From positions 1 to 64,000 of the forward strand of contig JBGQMB010000001.1 of NCBI GenBank assembly GCA_041500405.1: a stretch of 64,000 bases of DNA, written 5' to 3'. The stretch comes from Candidatus Micrarchaeia archaeon. GTDB lineage: Archaea > Micrarchaeota > Micrarchaeia > Anstonellales > J096. The position numbers were made by a program, and so were the translations under genes. The notes under the pieces were generated by a model. The model was not told the DNA's origin and made no database searches. It worked only from the letters and a program-made list of their open reading frames with translations. Positions 8,901 through 18,375 of this stretch are shown one piece after another (the first letter of the stretch is position 1; each line of letters begins with the position of its first letter).

Positions 8901-9980
8901 GCGGAGCGCAAGGCAAACACCACGCTCGCAAAGGACCTTCTGCTTCTTGACGGCGAAATCGCGTCATTGAACGAGTCTGTCGTACTGGCAGGCTCGCTTA
9001 ACCATTCATCCTATCTCATTGAGCTTTACAGCGAAAGGCTGGCAAGCCTTCTTTCGCTAAGGGCAAGGGCGATGGCAATGACTGCAGCAAACGCAACCGC
9101 GCTTTTGTCAGGATATAACCCCCAATGGAGCGAAACCGAGACCTCCAAATGGCTTTCCCAGGCGTTCACGAATTTCACCAAGCTGGAAAAGCTTTACAAC
9201 GACAACGGCATGGACGACCCGTCCGTTTCGGAGAACATGGCTCTTTTCAGGCAAAGCTACGTGAAGGCAAAGGGCGCGGAGTCCAACTTCACCCAGGCCG
9301 TTTATTCTTCATATTATCTGGGCAAGGTTTCGGATTCTATATATGCCGTAATCGCAACAAAGTCAAGCGGCCTTGCGCTGCTCAATGCGTCCCTTGAGTC
9401 TGAGCTTTCCGCACTGGAATCCAATTTGACGGTGTACGAGGCGATTTACAACGATGCCAAGCAGTACAAGCTTGAGTCATACTTGCCCTATGCGCCGAGT
9501 TATTTCTCGTCTGAAATAGCGAAAATGCGGAAAGCAACCACAGAAAGGCAGATGCGCCAGTTCATCAACCAAAGCGCAGGCCTATCTGCTACAATTTCAA
9601 GCGCAATTGAAAATGTGGCCGGAATAGCCAAAAATGAGCTCTCTTCAGCAACCCTGATGCTCGAGCAGTACAGGCAAAGGCTGGATTCGGAAACAGTTTC
9701 CAAGATGGAGTCTTCCTTAGCCGATGCCGGAAGCGCGATAGGCATCCAGAAATACGGAACTGCCATAAACCTGTCAAAGGGCGTTTCAGCCAGCATATCA
9801 AAGCTCGCTGCACAAAGCGATGAAGGGAACATGAGGCTGCTTGCGATAGGCCTTTTAGTGATTGGAAGCCTTGCCGTGATTGCATATAGCTACAGGGAGC
9901 CCATAATGGGCCTCTTTGGAAGCCGGAAAGGGAAGATTGCGCTCAGGAAGCTGAAAAAAGGCGAGGAAGGACAGGAATAA
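5973..9980 (+). CDS. Large (1335 aa) exported, C-terminally anchored protein with coiled-coil and beta-rich regions
   Basis: Signal-peptide-like N-terminus, C-terminal TM plus basic tail, many NxS/T sequons. Confidence 0.7.
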   Translation: MGPCSKPFIALGILLLAIGAGFCADDLGSPIGRPWQYSSWNEYTFTFFGMQIVNPDAMDPMLAGMIQKSLDKGNMDAKALGLANSYEALLASAVKDRVKCGVFFRFDEDNNVNVDTVIMGNARSSMDSESDAKFLYNNPDCAELLGMRGVKETYEEDNETKTRYYITDISEAKLSFSASSIAAFSKLIGYVNMNDYTSSEESSSADQILLLAVQKGLFNLDQALRDELYLISLLESAHACINYNGEFLNSTEYLLQNYDYSANMSRSNMTRVSDIYKDLEFKGFCSRNYTGIGSQLCRQLESEVYSNGTDYFTRANEEDAKLRNSISKMPANLTFAISGMSYMWAFISSNAGVEAEYRQKNDSFFKLLHDEEQKADSNKEALDKETAKPKAEKLDEITEIYVPEGSLSTSIGAISASEARYEEESRNATEELARLKQLGVVKDRGWAVEQYQGYIALNARMSEAIVSARETLYYAQVTVNYTRSQAVFIAEQKAAQGYNVSFIYDQVKKGDNATTLGSRFTFYKAAYLFALSLSAPNPTQNQTETLAALKAEVSSMLAKAKTDGIDVSSEQAKFDLYKNDANLVLAIEQMNNIKDSIIQKARASFSDLQYTRARLVRYFEADRQGVLDDIRNELAGYEAGLISGSSIDYGAALGKLTALRANYAAIENKIKDALGSYLSSAMVPEVEYAPPVVEINEMSSVSGTIIIENPLSDAVDNVNIRFTPPLPLEPSEIFGIVAKKSGGDIVFTIPRLEPLEIKTYEFRKQGIFAKGTLMATNTEGDGGTAHITENWLVEVSIPLDGLIMGDYDSAMFNGVEYPSGTVAKPIVVGTYEAAAKKSQEDAYSMSERQSTSESSQATIIQRTIHVVPTMYFDTILLRKEAGCSVNSSSYAYTQSQQQVVLQKVRNEGDIVLTCTYSKDTVHDTIDDLIDDITGSNLSTQEQQRLDNVTIMLSLGQNSTALSELLLLNRTVAMRLEAERKANTTLAKDLLLLDGEIASLNESVVLAGSLNHSSYLIELYSERLASLLSLRARAMAMTAANATALLSGYNPQWSETETSKWLSQAFTNFTKLEKLYNDNGMDDPSVSENMALFRQSYVKAKGAESNFTQAVYSSYYLGKVSDSIYAVIATKSSGLALLNASLESELSALESNLTVYEAIYNDAKQYKLESYLPYAPSYFSSEIAKMRKATTERQMRQFINQSAGLSATISSAIENVAGIAKNELSSATLMLEQYRQRLDSETVSKMESSLADAGSAIGIQKYGTAINLSKGVSASISKLAAQSDEGNMRLLAIGLLVIGSLAVIAYSYREPIMGLFGSRKGKIALRKLKKGEEGQE

Positions 9981-10038
9981 TCTGTTCTTAACAGAAATAT
10001 CCACTTATGATTTTAAACTCTTAGACTGTTCATAAATC

Positions 10039-10602
10039 ATGGAAGACAAGATTTATGATGAATTTACAAGAATGTTTACTCTCGTAGGGAATTCTAGAAG
10101 AGAGCTAAGAACAAAGATAATACAGGAATTTCTTTCCGAAAAAGGAGGATACTGGAAAGATAATATCAAGCACGTAACCCGCTATCGGTATTATGTAGAG
10201 AAATTGGCAGACGGAAGGAGAATATTTCTATATCGCCCCACATTCCTGAATAAGGGAATAGATTTTCAGGTCTGGATTGAGCAATTTGAGGATGGCAAGG
10301 ACAAGAAACCAAGCCATAAGGATATACTGAACGACCTAAAATTAAAACAGAAAGAAAATCCAAAGAAGTACCGGATGCTGCTTAAATCTATACAATGCAT
10401 CTGGAATTGCGAAGATCCAGATGCCATAATTGAAAAGTTTGAGAGTCTATCTTTCAGAAAAGGTTATCCGGTGGATTTGATATTGAAAACTCTTAAATGG
10501 CTCTTCATAGAACAAGACGTAACATACTGGAATTATGATGGGCGCGGCATGCTGATGTCTACGATATATAAAGATAACCCGAAGATAGAGCAATCCCCAT
10601 AG
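10039..10602 (+). CDS. Hypothetical protein, partner of Dam-like methylase (candidate endonuclease)
   Basis: 187 aa, AT-rich, directly upstream of the MTase; no motif recognised with certainty. Confidence 0.6.
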   Translation: MEDKIYDEFTRMFTLVGNSRRELRTKIIQEFLSEKGGYWKDNIKHVTRYRYYVEKLADGRRIFLYRPTFLNKGIDFQVWIEQFEDGKDKKPSHKDILNDLKLKQKENPKKYRMLLKSIQCIWNCEDPDAIIEKFESLSFRKGYPVDLILKTLKWLFIEQDVTYWNYDGRGMLMSTIYKDNPKIEQSP

Positions 10603-10675
10603 GCGTTGACCTCTGCTGGCAAGGAGGTCAGTAAACAATTTAAAAGGGGGCAACCAATATCCTTTCGTGCAGTAA

Positions 10676-11563
10676 ATGGATCTACCAAAACCCTTTGTGA
10701 AATGGGCTGGCGGGAAAAGGCAGCTAATAGAACAGTTGATTCAGTATGCGCCTTCTCACTTTAATGGTTATTTTGAGCCATTTTTGGGCGGTGGCGCATT
10801 CTTTTTCAAACTTTCATCCTTAGGGAGAATAAACAAAGCTTACCTAAACGATTCCAATGAAGAGCTAATCAATGCATATAATGTAATTAAGGAAAATCCA
10901 TTACATCTCATCTCTGAACTAGAAAGCGGTTCGTACAAAAACAACAAAGAGACATTTATAAATATAAGAAAAACACACCCCACGAATACTATAAAAGCGG
11001 CAGCAAGATTTATTTATCTAAATAAGACAGCATTCAATGGGCTGTACAGAGTCAATTCCAATGGCCAATTCAATGCTCCTTTTGGCCGTTATAATAATCC
11101 ATTAATCTGTGATGAGGACAATATACTGGCGGTAAGCCGGGCATTGCAGAAAGATGAGCTGACCTGCATGGATTTTGAAGACGCAGTTAATGATGCCGAA
11201 GAAGGCGATTTGGTATATTTTGATCCGCCTTACGCTCCGCTTAATGCAACATCTAACTTTACAGGATATACTAAAGACAGTTTTTCAGAAAAAGATCAAG
11301 AGAAGCTTGCCAAAACGTTCTCGAAATTAGACCGCAGAGGTTGCTTTGTCATGCTCAGTAATTCATATACACCACTAGTGCTGGATCTATATGATGAATT
11401 CAAGGTAAACACCGTTATGGCATCCAGAGTTATAAACTGTAAAGCGGAGCGCAGAGGAAAGATAAAGGAAGTTATCGTGACTAATGATTACTTACAGGCA
11501 ATCCCAAAAAGCTTAATGGCATACGTTTGCGCTAAGGGAGATATCGGCACTTCATCCGTTTAA
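10676..11563 (+). CDS. dam: Dam/DpnM-like N6-adenine DNA methyltransferase
   Basis: KWAGGK, YFEPFLGGGA, LND, FNGLYRVN, YFDPPY, MLSNS motifs. Confidence 0.93.
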   Translation: MDLPKPFVKWAGGKRQLIEQLIQYAPSHFNGYFEPFLGGGAFFFKLSSLGRINKAYLNDSNEELINAYNVIKENPLHLISELESGSYKNNKETFINIRKTHPTNTIKAAARFIYLNKTAFNGLYRVNSNGQFNAPFGRYNNPLICDEDNILAVSRALQKDELTCMDFEDAVNDAEEGDLVYFDPPYAPLNATSNFTGYTKDSFSEKDQEKLAKTFSKLDRRGCFVMLSNSYTPLVLDLYDEFKVNTVMASRVINCKAERRGKIKEVIVTNDYLQAIPKSLMAYVCAKGDIGTSSV

Positions 11564-11598
11564 AGAGCAGGAATAAAAACACTTTCAAGTCCCTTACC

Positions 11599-12471
11599 TT
11601 GATGGACCCAGTTTCATACAGGGAATACCTTTCGCAGTACACTGATCCGGACGTTCTTCTGGACACGCTGGAGAGTTTGCGGAAGACATTCAGGGTCAAC
11701 ACGCTCAAGTGCTCGGAAGAAAAGTTTCTTTCCTTTACTGAAATGAAGATGGAGAAGGAGCCCCTGCCCCTTGCGTACAGCATGGGCGCGGATTTTCCAA
11801 TAGGCAACACGCTGGAGTTTTTCTCGGGCATGATTCATACGCAGACCCTTTCATCAATGCTCCCGCCGCTTGTTCTGGAGCCCAAGCCGCACGAAAAGGT
11901 GCTTGACATGGCGGCAGCCCCCGGCGGAAAGACAACCCAGATGAGCGCCATGATGAAAAACACGGGAATAATAATCGCGAATGACGTAAAGATAGGCAGG
12001 CTGAGCGTCCTTGTCGGCAACATGCGGAGGCTTGGCGCGCTCAACATAACTGTCACAAGGGGCGACGCAAGGCGCCTTGATTACAAAAATGAGTTTGACA
12101 GGGTTTTGCTCGACGCCCCGTGCTCGTCCATGGGTTCGTCCCTTTCGTCTTTCAGGACATTGGACAGGGACAGGCTAAGGGATATGGCAAGGGTGCAAAG
12201 GAAACTGGCAATCGCGGGCTTTGACGCGCTCAAGCCAAACGGGGCAATGGTGTATTCCACGTGCACGTTTTCAAAGGAGGAGAACGAGGAAATAGTGAAA
12301 TTCCTTCTTGAGAGCAGGCCAAGCGCAAGGCTGGAAAAAATAAGCATGGACATGCCCCACGACGGCGGGCTTTCCGAATACGGGGCGGAATTTAAAAAAG
12401 TTTGGCGCATCCAACCGCACCACTTAAAAAGCGAAGGCTTCTTTATAGCGAGGATAAGCAAGGGCCCTTAG
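11599..12471 (+). CDS. RsmB/NOP2-family RNA m5C methyltransferase
   Basis: VLDMAAAPGGKTT, DRVLLDAPCS, VYSTCT..EENE, GFFIA. Confidence 0.93.
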   Translation: MMDPVSYREYLSQYTDPDVLLDTLESLRKTFRVNTLKCSEEKFLSFTEMKMEKEPLPLAYSMGADFPIGNTLEFFSGMIHTQTLSSMLPPLVLEPKPHEKVLDMAAAPGGKTTQMSAMMKNTGIIIANDVKIGRLSVLVGNMRRLGALNITVTRGDARRLDYKNEFDRVLLDAPCSSMGSSLSSFRTLDRDRLRDMARVQRKLAIAGFDALKPNGAMVYSTCTFSKEENEEIVKFLLESRPSARLEKISMDMPHDGGLSEYGAEFKKVWRIQPHHLKSEGFFIARISKGP

Positions 12472-12533
12472 ATCAGCGGTAGATCGCTCCCCTCGCACGG
12501 GAGAGGCCAGGGGTTCAAATCCCCTAGGGTCCA
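12462..12533 (+). tRNA. tRNA-Ala(CGC), overlapping the last 10 nt of the upstream CDS
   Basis: GGGCCCT/AGGGTCC acceptor with G3-U70, CTCCC-CT-CGC-AC-GGGAG anticodon arm, TTCAAAT T-loop. Confidence 0.93.
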
Positions 12534-12600
12534 AGTCCTTTCTTTTAGAAAAAGAAAGCACTTGGGGAAAGAAAACTACTTCTGTAAAAAAGAAAGGGCT

Positions 12601-12701
12601 TGGGGATACGGGGATTTGAACCCCGACCTACAGGTTTCTTCTAATCGCGCGTCCGCGCAAAACCTGGAGCCTGCCGTGCTACCTGGTTGCACTATACCCC
12701 C
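12601..12701 (-). tRNA. tRNA-Trp(CCA) with ~28-nt intron at 37/38
   Basis: GGGGGTA/TATCCCC acceptor; GCAGG-CT-CCA-G [GTTTTGCGCGGACGCGCGATTAGAAGAA] A-CCTGT; TTCAAAT. Confidence 0.9.
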
Positions 12702-14037: not shown

Positions 14038-15063
14038 TCAAATTTTCCTTGACCCGTTTTTTGTTTCGGTTTTTGCTTTCAGAAGTTGCGCAGCTACAGG
14101 GAAATAGTCCACCTTGTGCTCTTCATAGACATGGAGCATTTCGTAATCCCCGGCAACATCGCCGAAGCGGTTCATGAAGTCCCCCATCATGGACCGGAAA
14201 TCCCTTTCGTCGCTAACCTCTGCCTCTATTTCCAAGTCCCATTCGCCGAAGCAGCCCACGAAATAGACGACTTCCGGTCTCAATGCGCAGAATGAATAGA
14301 TAGTTTTCTCGTCCTTTTCCCCAAGGGATTTTGCGCTGACGATTGCCTTGTAGAATTTCCTGCCTGTTTTCTCCAGGTCCATGATTGTGCGGTATGCCTG
14401 TATTATGCCGTCTTTCTCAAGCTTCCTTATTCTCTCCTTTACCGCCCCATCGCTCATGCCAATTGTCTGCCCAAGTTCGCGGTTTGGCAGCCGGGCATTC
14501 CTGCCAAGGAGCTCCAGCAGCCGCAGGTTAGTTTCGTCCAGCTTGTATGGCCCGTACTCAAAGCCATAGACGAACGTTTCAGGGGGCATTTCCCTTTCTT
14601 CTCCTGTGAGATAGGTCCTCTTGAAGTGGTAGTTGAACGTTGAGGGCGAAACAGAATAGCTTTTCAGCCGCTCGCCAAGCTCAGCCTTGATTTTTCTTAG
14701 GATGTTGCTGAAATCAACCGGGTTCCTTGCCGCCAGGAGAATCTCCAGGTCCCACCTGCCGCTTGTGCTTGCCACCCACATGGACGGCACCTCGCCCTTG
14801 AGATATTCTATTATCTTCGGATAGTCTGACGGAGGGGCTTTCTGCAGCCGCAGATAGAGCCTGTATGAGTAATATCCGAGCTTATGCAGATTGATCAGGG
14901 CAGTGAAACCCTTTATCACCCCGGCTTCAGTCAGCTTATTGAGCCGGTATTTGGCGAGTTGAGGCGAAATCCCGACCTTTTTGGCAAGGACAGCAAGGGG
15001 AATCCGGGCATTGAAGTCCAGTTCGGCGAGCATCCGGAAGTCCTTCTTATCGAGCTTTTCCAT
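14038..15063 (-). CDS. Double-length Lrp/AsnC-family transcriptional regulator
   Basis: Two wHTH+RAM units (LDKKDFRMLAELDFNARIP...; LDETNLRLLELLGRNARLP...), each with GxWD; start MEKLD at 15063. Confidence 0.88.
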   Translation of the reverse strand: MEKLDKKDFRMLAELDFNARIPLAVLAKKVGISPQLAKYRLNKLTEAGVIKGFTALINLHKLGYYSYRLYLRLQKAPPSDYPKIIEYLKGEVPSMWVASTSGRWDLEILLAARNPVDFSNILRKIKAELGERLKSYSVSPSTFNYHFKRTYLTGEEREMPPETFVYGFEYGPYKLDETNLRLLELLGRNARLPNRELGQTIGMSDGAVKERIRKLEKDGIIQAYRTIMDLEKTGRKFYKAIVSAKSLGEKDEKTIYSFCALRPEVVYFVGCFGEWDLEIEAEVSDERDFRSMMGDFMNRFGDVAGDYEMLHVYEEHKVDYFPVAAQLLKAKTETKNGSRKI

Positions 15064-15184
15064 GCTTGTTTTATATTTAGTAGTTTTTATAAGCTTTTCT
15101 ACTTTTTCTAAAAAAATAGGACTATATTGTTTTATATATATCAAAAGCCACGTATAGACACAGGTAAACACAAATGAGGCGATT

Positions 15185-15712
15185 ATGATGACCATGAATA
15201 CCCGGATGCTGGCTTTGAAAGCTGAACGCCTGGAAAAAAAGACGAGAAAATTTGGGATGTCGCATCATTCGATGCTCTTCAATGAACCACTCGTAGAGTT
15301 GAAGCGGGACCTACAGATAAGGCAGGGTATGAAGGATAGCTTTGAGGCTGTCAAAACAAAAGTTTCCCCGGTCGATACAGGTGTAGATAACGGAGTATGT
15401 AAAGGTAAAGGACTTGAGTTCTGGCTGAAAAATTCCCCGACGGGGATTGCCCTTTGCAATGCCTTACCAAAGCAGGCTACCATTCTGGGGAGTGTTTTAA
15501 GTGCTATCCTGGTTGCAGAAATGGCAATATGGTCTATTGTTCCGGAAGCTGTACAAACAATTACAGGCATATATGGAGTTCCAACCAAGTTACTCTGGTT
15601 CTATGAAAATTTTCCTCCAATAGTAGTAACATGCCTTTTTGGGATGTTCACCTCGGCTTTTGCTGGGTGTACAGCCGCAGCGTTCCGTGACGAAGCGATA
15701 AGAGACAAATAA
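15185..15712 (+). CDS. Hypothetical membrane protein with shared MMTMxTRMLAxKAER leader (copy 1)
   Basis: GAGGCGA RBS; two hydrophobic segments; leader shared with next ORF. Confidence 0.7.
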   Translation: MMTMNTRMLALKAERLEKKTRKFGMSHHSMLFNEPLVELKRDLQIRQGMKDSFEAVKTKVSPVDTGVDNGVCKGKGLEFWLKNSPTGIALCNALPKQATILGSVLSAILVAEMAIWSIVPEAVQTITGIYGVPTKLLWFYENFPPIVVTCLFGMFTSAFAGCTAAAFRDEAIRDK

Positions 15713-15728
15713 CACAGATGAGGCGATT

Positions 15729-16640
15729 ATGATGACTATGAAAACAAGGATGCTTGCCCGGAAGGCTGAGCGCGAAATGAACAAAGCGTACAAGCTCGGC
15801 ATGGAGTGGGGCGGAGATTTCCTCAGGCAACTGCGCGACGAACTAAGGGCATTCAAGGTGGATGTCGATAAGGATGATTCTGACACGCGCAGCCCAAGCG
15901 AGATCCACCGCGCTAGATGCTACACCCACGTATGCAACATCTTGCATACGACGGAAAGCACCAAGGAAGCAATCGCAAAATCCATCGATAGCACGGTTGG
16001 GATACTGGAGGATGCGGCAAAGAAGCGCGGCGAACTACAGGAGGGACAGCGCGAAATGTGCGTGGTCTCATACAGGCCTTACAGGTACGAGTGCGAACTC
16101 AAAGTATGTGGCATAAGCAAGGCCGAATTCTGGTTAATGAAGGCAGCGGGCGCAACTCGCAAAACCCTGCTGCCATGTGCGGCAACAGCAGCCATGGCAT
16201 GGCTTGCTTGTGAGAACTGGCCTGCAATAGCGCATGCTGCAACTTCGGCAACAAATCACATCGTAGACATAGCAGTAGCGGCAAAGGCATATCTTGCAAA
16301 AAATATAAGGGAGATTGCAACAGTAGCGGCAGGTTTCGTTATTTTTATGACTATTATAGTTGGAGGGAGAAGCCGGCCTGAGCAGGAGATGTCAGACAGT
16401 GAACTGCTCTTCGCAGCGGTCCACGACATGAGGGTAGGGATGGAGAGGGCGCTGAGGGAGCAAGATAGGAAGTGTGAGGAAAGCGTGGAAGCATGGCGGG
16501 TCGTTCACATGTTTAAGTATCTAATTCCTGCCGAAGAGATGAAGGCGAAGGTCCTGAAAGCGGCAGAGGAAATGCTGGCAACGGTAAATATGATTGAGGC
16601 TGCAGTAAAAGAGCAGCTGCAGCCGGCCAGGAAGATTTGA
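15729..16640 (+). CDS. Hypothetical membrane protein with shared leader (copy 2)
   Basis: Same RBS and leader; two hydrophobic segments; charged helical termini. Confidence 0.7.
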   Translation: MMTMKTRMLARKAEREMNKAYKLGMEWGGDFLRQLRDELRAFKVDVDKDDSDTRSPSEIHRARCYTHVCNILHTTESTKEAIAKSIDSTVGILEDAAKKRGELQEGQREMCVVSYRPYRYECELKVCGISKAEFWLMKAAGATRKTLLPCAATAAMAWLACENWPAIAHAATSATNHIVDIAVAAKAYLAKNIREIATVAAGFVIFMTIIVGGRSRPEQEMSDSELLFAAVHDMRVGMERALREQDRKCEESVEAWRVVHMFKYLIPAEEMKAKVLKAAEEMLATVNMIEAAVKEQLQPARKI

Positions 16641-16653
16641 AGAGGCGATTATT

Positions 16654-18375
16654 ATGGAAATGCAGATGAAGAAATTGGAGATAACGCGCCTTTCCAAAAC
16701 GACATTCCCGATAATGAGTCCGCAAAATGCAGGCAGGATGGTTGAAAACAACTTGAGGATAGACAATATCTTCGCATCGGGCAGGGCGGCTGACCCGCTG
16801 GTTGCGGGGGAGCTTGACGAACTGAAAAAGGAAAGCCTGCACCTGCTGACGATAATGTATCCTCCGAAGGCCTGCAACTTCAAATGCCCGAACTATTGCT
16901 GCACGGAAGGCATCGACAAGGGCAGGCTGGACAACGGGCAGATCCTGGAAATCGTCAGGCAGGCAACCGAGCTGGGCATGAAAGTGACGTACTTTCCCGG
17001 CCTTGGCGAACTGCCCCTGCTGAAGAAATTCTGGGAACTCCAGGAAGAACTTCATAGGATGAGGATAGCTTCAGTCGTGTTCACAAACGGCAGCGCGTTC
17101 TGGGACGACGGGCTGGCAAGGACCGCTACAGGGAAGAGCGCCGAGGAGCTTATAGAGAAGGTCAATGAAATAGGGATGTATCTCTATGTGAAATACTGGC
17201 ACTCTGACCCGAAGGAGGCGGCAAGGATGGTTGGCGTTAGGGAAAGCGAGTATCCGTACAAAACGCTGGCGGACGGCATGCGCATCCCGCTTGCGCTCGC
17301 GAGACTGATGGAACGCATGTCTAAAGACAGGCTCGGCGTCGAGGTGATGGTTTCGCGGGAAAATTACGGCGACGTGGTTGCGAACATCATGCCCAATATA
17401 GAAAAACTTGGCCTTTATGGACTCATGGAGCCGGTCATATTCTCAGGAAAGGCCGAGGGAAGGCAGGCAGAGCTGGCGCTCACGCCGGAGCAGTATTCAT
17501 CGCTCGCAGACCAGTTCATAAGCGGCGGGAAATGGTGCATAAAAAGGCAGTCGCGGGAAGCGTCGCTTGTCGGAGAAAACCTGCTGCTGGCAATGCTGCT
17601 GCCGCCGGCACAGGAGAACCGCGTGCTGGACAACAGCGGAGCGCTGAAGCCTATTCTCGGCATACTGCATGGGCCAGAAGCCAGAAGGATAAGGGCAGAC
17701 AACGACAGGTACGGCTGCGTTTGCAGGCACTATTTTCTTGAGAAGCAGAAGGAGAGAAGGATGGACGAACTTTTCGGCGCCTTTGCGCCTGACTACATCG
17801 TTCACATGGACAGAACGAACCACTCTGCAGTCCAGAAAAGAATAATGGACGGGTTTATCGGCCACATAGGAAAGAAGGTCCTTGACATAGCGACCGGACC
17901 GGGCACAATCGCGAAATACGTGAAGGGAGCAAAGTCGGAATGCGAGGTGCACGGAATTGACAGGAACGAAAAGATGCTCATAGAGGCGACAAAAGACCCT
18001 CAGGGGGTGGAATTCAAGAAAGGCGAGGCCACAGCCCTGCCGGCCAAGGACGGGACTTACGACACCGTAACTTCGTCCTATGCGTTCTATTGGATAAAGG
18101 ATCCGGAAAAGGCGATCTCGGAAGTCGGACGGGTGCTGAAAACAGGCGGAACGTTCATCGTGCTTGAAGAGGAGTTCAACGGCGGGGACACACAACCGGT
18201 CTTCTCCAGATACGACCGGGCAGACCTGAAGGAACTTGCCGGTCTGGAGAACTACATCGGCGTGGCACGCGTAAGGCAGATGATAGAGGCAGCAGGTTTT
18301 GAGTTTGTGGAGCAAGTGCAGTATCCGGTTGACGAACGCCACGGCACAGCAGGGATGGCTTTCAGGAAGAGATAA
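16654..18375 (+). CDS. Radical-SAM domain fused to class I SAM methyltransferase
   Basis: CNFKCPNYCC, PGLGE, VFTNG radical-SAM core; C-terminal VLDIATGPG, GID, YDTV, GRVLKTGG. Confidence 0.8.
   Translation: MEMQMKKLEITRLSKTTFPIMSPQNAGRMVENNLRIDNIFASGRAADPLVAGELDELKKESLHLLTIMYPPKACNFKCPNYCCTEGIDKGRLDNGQILEIVRQATELGMKVTYFPGLGELPLLKKFWELQEELHRMRIASVVFTNGSAFWDDGLARTATGKSAEELIEKVNEIGMYLYVKYWHSDPKEAARMVGVRESEYPYKTLADGMRIPLALARLMERMSKDRLGVEVMVSRENYGDVVANIMPNIEKLGLYGLMEPVIFSGKAEGRQAELALTPEQYSSLADQFISGGKWCIKRQSREASLVGENLLLAMLLPPAQENRVLDNSGALKPILGILHGPEARRIRADNDRYGCVCRHYFLEKQKERRMDELFGAFAPDYIVHMDRTNHSAVQKRIMDGFIGHIGKKVLDIATGPGTIAKYVKGAKSECEVHGIDRNEKMLIEATKDPQGVEFKKGEATALPAKDGTYDTVTSSYAFYWIKDPEKAISEVGRVLKTGGTFIVLEEEFNGGDTQPVFSRYDRADLKELAGLENYIGVARVRQMIEAAGFEFVEQVQYPVDERHGTAGMAFRKR

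Follow-up and report, generated by a model that had tools for sequence, protein, structure and literature searches.

Why should two neighbouring and otherwise dissimilar genes of an archaeon begin with almost the same stretch of DNA? The question is raised by a 64,000-nt segment of the genome of a Candidatus Micrarchaeia archaeon (assembly GCA_041500405.1, contig JBGQMB010000001.1, positions 1 to 64,000; the whole of this stretch is called the window below), in which two adjacent open reading frames (ORFs) on the plus strand, P1 (15185..15712, a 175-aa orphan) and P2 (15729..16640, 303 aa), both encoding proteins with hydrophobic segments, share a 63-nt direct repeat that covers their translation-initiation regions and first 15 codons. 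In the initial annotation of the window the common start was taken for a modular recognition tag on variable cargo, either a leader read by the enzyme encoded next to P2, a fusion of a radical S-adenosylmethionine (SAM)-like domain and a methyltransferase, or an uncharacterised export or targeting signal. The analysis described here points to a different answer, namely that P1 and P2 are probably tandem paralogues, old and much diverged, from a very rare family which has P0014, a protein from another organism, as its third member and in which a predicted N-terminal helix has been kept by selection.

The first copy of the repeat (15167..15229, plus strand) consists of an 18-nt 5' leader with a Shine-Dalgarno sequence and codons 1–15 of P1, and the second (15711..15773, plus strand) of the 18 intercistronic nucleotides and codons 1–15 of P2. 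The two copies align without gaps and are identical at 52 of 63 positions, the same figure as originally counted, and an independent repeat search recovers the pair at 83%. Our recount also confirms that nine codons differ, seven of them synonymously; six are identical and two carry replacements (N5K and L11R). The 45 coding bases contain 10 differences, seven of which fall at third positions. When 10 random substitutions were simulated, a mean of 6.7–6.8 residue changes was expected, against the two observed, and two or fewer changes arose in none of 20,000 trials with P1 as the starting sequence and in about two of 20,000 with P2, a chance figure that is somewhat optimistic as the simulated segment was picked after the peptide match had been seen. 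Since seven of the nine identical non-methionine residues of the shared N-terminus are encoded by different codons, synonymous sites must be near saturation and the copy must be old; the small number of residue changes despite this saturation indicates that the shared peptide has been kept by purifying selection. The codon counts and the simulation together support this conclusion over recent copying or gene conversion, and here the initial annotation, which had argued for selection on the peptide, is borne out.

The 18 nt upstream of the two start codons differ at one position (17/18 identical), and the probability of at most one difference among 18 is 1e-3 to 3e-7 at 40–64% divergence. The genome encodes an archaeal 16S rRNA with the 3' end GAUCACCUCC, to which GAGGCGAT in the repeat pairs with one mismatch; on this ground GAGGCGAT is regarded as an extended Shine-Dalgarno sequence. 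Public gene calls begin P1 and P2 at the fourth codon (giving 172 and 300 aa), whereas the first or second ATG is favoured by the Shine-Dalgarno spacing, by the start of the third gene of the operon and by that of P0014. Both repeat copies also contain a four-codon mini-ORF, ATG AGG CGA TTA TGA (15173–15187 and 15717–15731), the stop of which overlaps the main gene's first ATG (ATGA). Its own ATG is missing from the corresponding region of the third gene, and it may be a chance product of the conserved Shine-Dalgarno region.

The relationship between P1 and P2 becomes clearer with P0014 (371 aa), the single relative returned by an exhaustive HMMER search of 1.84 billion representative proteins with P2 (E 4.6e-6) and encoded on a single 2,114-bp contig; a word-indexed search of 5.8 billion proteins retrieved with P1 and P2 only the queries themselves. 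P2 and P0014 can be aligned in three blocks that occur in the same order, residues 2–48 (23/46 identical, E 8e-9), residues 124–155 (E 5e-4), containing an ISKxEFxLxK motif (ISK[AS]EF.L.K), and residues 250–293 (E 2e-5), representing a C-terminal helical domain. From residue 27 to its end, P2 by itself is similar to P0014 with a z-score of 8.4, a value that none of 1000 shuffles equalled, and a CX4C pair is among the cysteines conserved between the two proteins in a MAFFT alignment. The match of P0014 to P1 is confined to residues 2–27 (E 1e-5), with nothing significant further along. Residues 8–62 of P0014 recur at 116–170 of the same protein (z 6.7, 0 of 1000 shuffles as good), which means that the helix making up the second half of the supposed leader is also found in the middle of a protein. 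The collinearity of P2 and P0014, the internal copy of the helix and the lack of further bearers described below all speak against a modular tag on variable cargo. Full-length paralogy without excess conservation of the start, the outcome that the annotation itself had set against its proposal, was found in part: paralogy is collinear and the genome holds no more bearers, but the first 15 residues are still the best conserved.

Between P1 and P2 themselves, the sequences had been described as diverging after residue 15. The shared start stands, but the similarity extends to residue 26 (17/26 identical; BLASTP E 1e-6), beyond which the two proteins are not significantly alike (z about 1, with residues 27 to the end matched by 86 of 500 shuffles). 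A second patch initially singled out, VC..EFWL, does exist in both, but alone it is not significant (E 0.33; the score of linker plus motif is reached by 32 of 500 shuffles); its EFWL motif is collinear in P1 with the family motif that P2 and P0014 have conserved. P1 comprises the N-terminal helix, VCKGKGLEFWLK at residues 71–82 and hydrophobic segments at about 96–126 and 142–168, while P2 is made up of an N-terminal helical hairpin, the CX4C pair (C64, C69), VCGISKAEFWLMK at 126–138, one strong membrane segment (about 193–211) and the C-terminal helical domain, the first hydrophobic window beginning at about residue 93 of P1 and 189 of P2. Of the two transmembrane helices formerly assigned to each protein after the patch, those of P1 are evident as two clear hydrophobic segments, but in P2 a single strong segment (window maximum at 193, Kyte-Doolittle hydropathy (KD) 2.01) is accompanied by a weak alanine-rich stretch (KD about 1.0). 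P0014 has no membrane segment (maximum 19-residue KD 0.66). In an AlphaFold2 model of P2, built from a two-row alignment, helices occupy residues 4–22 and 26–41, with a predicted local distance difference test score (pLDDT) of 37.6, too low for a fold search, and the helical nature of the N-terminal region is a low-confidence prediction. The family has three members, so its profiles are weak, and structural statements about P1 and P2 are to be read with low confidence.

Domain and defence-system collections add little. Pfam, NCBIfam, PHROGs and PADLOC gave nothing meaningful for P1 or P2, and PHROGs, PADLOC and NCBIfam nothing specific for P0014; the ESM Atlas held no usable match for P2, and its best for P1 scored 0.76, below the useful level. 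A resemblance to ribbon-helix-helix proteins (CopG/Arc/MetJ), suggested by a ..LGMS.. pattern, was rejected, the N-terminal 60–66 residues of P1, P2 and P0014 having no ribbon-helix-helix match at E ≤ 10; the ribbon-helix-helix profile PF01402 found nothing in the genome itself at E ≤ 0.001.

A profile scan for further genes with this N-terminus, as the initial annotation had proposed, brought none to light. In the six-frame translation of the genome's own assembly (86% complete), no third bearer was recovered by regular expression or by a 48-position hidden Markov model of the three N-termini, and none came up when full-length P1 and P2 were run against 60 relatives or P0014 against 175 genomes of the order. 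A two-row N-terminal profile applied to 400 genomes of the phylum gave a best E of 0.0097 per genome, which is the chance level for 400. A leader scan of metagenome contigs yielded 591 stretches fitting the pattern and scans of viral contigs 56 and 364, none of which was confirmed. The degenerate DNA pattern for MTM[KN]TxMLA picked out 41 metagenome stretches and one viral stretch, none continuing as the leader, and those followed by a long ORF mostly read like ordinary signal peptides. Finally, tblastn produced no match for P0014 in phage records or for P2 in plasmid records.

If P1 and P2 are tandem paralogues, the shared 63 nt would be the still recognisable remnant of their duplication, in which a strong translation-initiation region (GAGGCGAT and spacer) would have been retained by selection at the nucleotide level and the opening helix of a helical hairpin at the N-terminus by selection at the peptide level. 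The helix would then be an integral and presumably cytoplasmic part of the protein rather than a detachable leader; our guess is that it serves as a docking or oligomerisation module, which P1 and P2 would hold at the membrane through a C-terminal or inserted hydrophobic hairpin. Because P0014 appears soluble, lacks a signal and has the C-terminal domain of P2, both ends of P2 are predicted to be cytoplasmic and its hydrophobic part to be an inserted hairpin, an arrangement that makes an export signal unlikely. The two genes would belong to a variable island, in one operon that also contains the radical-SAM-like/methyltransferase fusion and stands under a divergent Lrp-type regulator, and their products probably act with, or are co-regulated with, the enzyme module.

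Several observations weigh against this reading. P1 and P2 show no significant likeness past residue 26, and the case for full-length paralogy of P1 consists of the N-terminus and one weak collinear motif, so that P1 could instead be a partial duplicate. The codon adaptation index (CAI) of P1, 0.476, is barely above the values of its own other frames (0.414 and 0.459) and as atypical as that of a foreign-looking Dam gene elsewhere in the window. The first 14–15 residues are the best conserved in all three pairings of P1, P2 and P0014 (13/15, 10/14 and 9/14), and the first seven (MTMKTxM) lie outside the internal repeat of P0014; a specific role of the extreme N-terminus is conceivable. The solved folds closest to that of the neighbouring enzyme mostly belong to peptide or protein maturases, as set out below, and the count of enzyme loci with and without P1/P2-like genes covers three loci, with P0014, known from a 2,114-bp contig, outside it.

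The first alternative, which we judge unlikely, makes P1 a partial duplicate, either young or in decay, that arose when a copy of the 5' end of P2, with its initiation region and first codons, came to lie before unrelated sequence, and that would itself do little or nothing. It would account for the restriction of significant similarity with P2 and P0014 to residues 1–27, and for the codon usage of P1, which is at the 0.3rd percentile in CAI, with a G+C content at third codon positions (GC3) of 0.446, and close to its off-frames; P2 has a CAI of 0.608 (9th percentile, GC3 0.581), compared to 0.40–0.49 in its other frames, and the enzyme gene is typical of the genome (CAI 0.731, 47th percentile, GC3 0.682; genome mean GC3 0.662). 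On the other hand, the 175-codon frame of P1 is intact and encodes two clear hydrophobic segments, its EFWL motif is collinear with the motif of the P2/P0014 family, and saturation of synonymous sites with two replacements implies long purifying selection on the N-terminal codons after the copying. Contigs from several sediment metagenome runs moreover contain the locus in near-identical form, with one in-gene difference (16037 A>G in P2, read as a synonymous change of CTA to CTG); these contigs represent the same strain and are uninformative on selection. A 151-nt contig from one sediment run matches the intergenic region between the regulator and P1 (15041–15190) with 19 differences and one gap, which hints at a diverged relative of the locus in the same habitat.

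The second alternative takes the N-terminus for a recognition handle and concerns the other genes of the locus. P1, P2 and the gene for the 573-aa fusion enzyme (16654..18375) are three tightly packed plus-strand genes separated by gaps of 13–16 nt; on the minus strand, diverging from P1, lies a 341-aa Lrp/AsnC-type regulator with two helix-turn-helix (HTH) modules (14038..15063, ATG at 15063), matched over two stretches each by Pfam HTH_24 (2e-29) and HTH_AsnC-type (5e-24) and also by NCBIfam Lrp-type models. The C-terminal part of the enzyme (about 390–560) is a class I SAM methyltransferase (Pfam Methyltransf_11, 5.8e-19), and its first 360 residues, the radical-SAM-like domain, form a family with stand-alone proteins of ~350 aa to which they are 42–50% identical. 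In an alignment of ten sequences C74, C78, C82 and C295 are invariant, and C355 and C357 are present in nine. The canonical radical SAM motif is CX3CX2C, whereas the cluster motif here is CX3CX3C, and Pfam Radical_SAM matches three of the ten family members (best E 0.009) and not the window protein; a profile search of PDB sequences found nothing. The AlphaFold2 model of the enzyme has a pLDDT of 83.3, the cysteine loop (70–90) excepted, and in Foldseek ranks SuiB, CteB, BlsE, SkfB and viperin first (E 4e-7 to 3e-5), with NifB and MoaA also matched over a full range of E 4e-7 to 7e-4. By this model, which contains a partial TIM barrel, the N-terminal domain has a twitch/SPASM-like radical-SAM fold. 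The idea that the P2 family is homologous to the N-terminus of the enzyme itself was considered and rejected (hhalign probability 0.7%).

The twitch/SPASM maturases SuiB, CteB, SkfB, EpeE, PqqE and anSME resemble the enzyme model with Foldseek E-values of 4e-7 to 4e-5 and query-normalised TM-scores of 0.40–0.54, and the enzyme family has conserved cysteines in the C-terminal part of the domain, as these maturases do (C295 in 10/10 sequences, C355/C357 in 9/10). Unlike them, it has the CX3CX3C motif with a weak or no Radical_SAM match, lacks an N-terminal recognition domain and, in the window, has a class I methyltransferase fused to it. Pfam gives no match to a PqqD-like recognition element at E ≤ 1 in the window protein or the ten family members, and in the model only helices 26–41 and 48–58 precede the strand at 64–68; a recognition site of another kind is conceivable. 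A co-fold of the enzyme domain with P2 residues 1–60, run without controls, scored 0.00 (mark 0.32), which counts neither for nor against binding.

Homologues of the enzyme are encoded at four other archaeal loci (L019, L020, L021 and L022). In L020 and L021 a two-HTH Lrp-type regulator lies directly upstream and is divergently transcribed, and in L019 the order is regulator, canonical radical SAM gene, enzyme homologue. L020 and L022 encode the methyltransferase in a separate downstream gene; in the window it is fused to the enzyme. At the three loci whose upstream side is visible (L022 breaks off at the enzyme gene's 5' end and is omitted from the count), the space between regulator and enzyme contains no P1/P2-like gene and leaves no room for a small ORF, so that the conserved unit appears to be the regulator and the enzyme, with or without the methyltransferase. 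To judge from the sequences, P1 and P2 are an addition found in this genome only and the enzyme family is independent of them; the co-occurrence of leader and enzyme that would have been expected of a leader system was seen at 0/3 loci.

Against this background we think it improbable that the N-terminal 14–26 residues are bound by the co-operonic fusion enzyme, which then modifies full-length P1 and P2. The idea draws on the shared operon with its short gaps, on the N-terminus being the best-conserved part across P1, P2 and P0014, on the conserved cysteines, including CX4C, common to P2 and P0014, and on the maturases among the closest solved folds. It meets the three enzyme loci without a leader gene, the lack of a PqqD-like element in both the Pfam scan and the model, the internal recurrence of the helix in P0014 and the nature of P1 and P2, which are 175 and 303 aa long and have membrane segments; we know of no precursor that resembles them. 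The earlier option of a leader read by the neighbouring enzyme is without positive support, and the enzyme loci, the recognition search and the internal helix copy all speak against it. The stronger claim, that the N-terminal helix is a dedicated handle by which the twitch-type CX3CX3C radical SAM-methyltransferase fusion recruits whole membrane proteins for modification, merits less credence still; if true, it would mean leader-guided chemistry like that of ribosomally synthesised peptides with post-translational modifications (RiPPs) on full-length proteins in a DPANN-like archaeon.

The precedent for such a system would be the NHLP/Nif11-type RiPP precursors, in which one conserved leader is reportedly combined with many divergent cores (PMC2887384). 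P1 and P2 are like these precursors in being paralogues beside a radical-SAM-fold enzyme that have a conserved N-terminus and differ downstream of it. They are unlike them in being proteins of 175 and 303 aa with membrane segments instead of a leader with a short core, in the further collinear blocks that P2 shares with P0014 and the recurrence of the helix within P0014, and in that no recognition element was found in the enzyme and homologous enzyme loci lack such genes. Literature listings, confined to Micrarchaeota radical SAM enzymes and to Nif11/NHLP leaders, showed nothing on the P1/P2 family or the enzyme module.

A third alternative places the constraint in the nucleic acid, the 5' leader and first codons forming a shared initiation or regulator-binding site and the peptide similarity being secondary; we regard this as quite unlikely. 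The upstream region is indeed 17/18 identical despite near-saturated synonymous sites, and the 11-mer GAGGCGATTAT stands before all three genes of the operon, with one occurrence elsewhere, making four in the 916-kb assembly, three of them at the starts of P1, P2 and the enzyme gene. The last of these is part of a third copy of the 18-nt translation-initiation core, GAAGAGGCGATTATTATG (16639..16656, plus strand; 89% in the repeat family), which precedes the enzyme gene. The three initiation regions are unstructured, as expected of open initiation sites: they fold no better than shuffles (z −0.2, +0.6 and −0.3), and an Rfam scan of the repeat regions gave no family, on which grounds an RNA element was rejected as the explanation of the repeats. 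Against a constraint on the nucleic acid alone, however, seven of the 10 coding changes are at third positions, the signature of selection on peptide rather than RNA, the peptide is kept in P0014 from another organism, and the third gene has the 18-nt core without the shared codons.

An uncharacterised export or membrane-targeting signal on variable cargo is very unlikely, since the membrane segments of P1 and P2 and the basic character of the N-terminus (seven K/R and two to three D/E in residues 1–26) are set against the lack of a hydrophobic core, an RR pair or a lipobox, a P0014 that has the same N-terminus and no membrane segment, the helix copy inside P0014 and the absence of the N-terminus from any other protein of the genome. 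No feature of Sec, Tat, lipoprotein or class III signals was found in the N-termini of P1 and P2, so the initial statement that the leader is neither a Sec nor a Tat signal holds, while the targeting signal proposed beside it is not supported.

The surroundings of the locus are variable. P1, P2 and the enzyme were sought in two genomes of the same genus (G001 and G002) and are present in neither. Between the same major facilitator superfamily (MFS) and cysteinyl-tRNA synthetase (CysRS) genes, G002 has two unrelated genes for membrane proteins, which read as aquaporin-like and membrane methyltransferase-like. Upstream of CysRS, G001 has two other tandem paralogues on the minus strand (L032, 3294–4346 and 4419–5339; 350 and 306 aa), whose first ~22 residues are nearly identical (MDMKPASGKSHAARRIRKRPFR..) and appear to be followed by a hydrophobic stretch ending in AGC, as in lipoproteins. 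Like P1 and P2, these are adjacent paralogues in the same variable region with a common N-terminus and diverged bodies; unlike their apparent lipoprotein-type signal, the N-terminus of P1 and P2 is a charged helix without signal features. Sharing both the evolutionary pattern and the variable region but consisting of different genes, the G001 pair is an ordinary tandem-paralogue comparison for P1 and P2.

Further upstream in the window, a segment of low GC content (9800–11600; 36–42% versus 51% for the genome) holds a gene that reads as a Dam-type DNA adenine methylase (10676–11563; CAI 0.475, 0.3rd percentile) and looks acquired. A tRNA-Ala (CGC) gene at 12462–12533 has its 3' part copied in inverted orientation (81% complementary) at 12588–12624; this copy could be an uncalled second tRNA gene, a piece of a split tRNA or an old integration scar.

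If P1 and P2 are, as we think probable, diverged tandem paralogues, their common start reflects an ordinary evolutionary pattern, that of duplicated genes keeping one functional module, in a family that is extremely rare, with three members among billions of predicted proteins. The locus would also be a clean small case in which synonymous saturation separates constraint at the nucleotide level, on the Shine-Dalgarno region, from constraint at the peptide level, on the first helix. The more interesting by-product may be the neighbouring module, in which an Lrp-type regulator is combined with a CX3CX3C enzyme of predicted radical-SAM fold that Pfam does not recognise and with a methyltransferase, and which recurs across several archaeal lineages.

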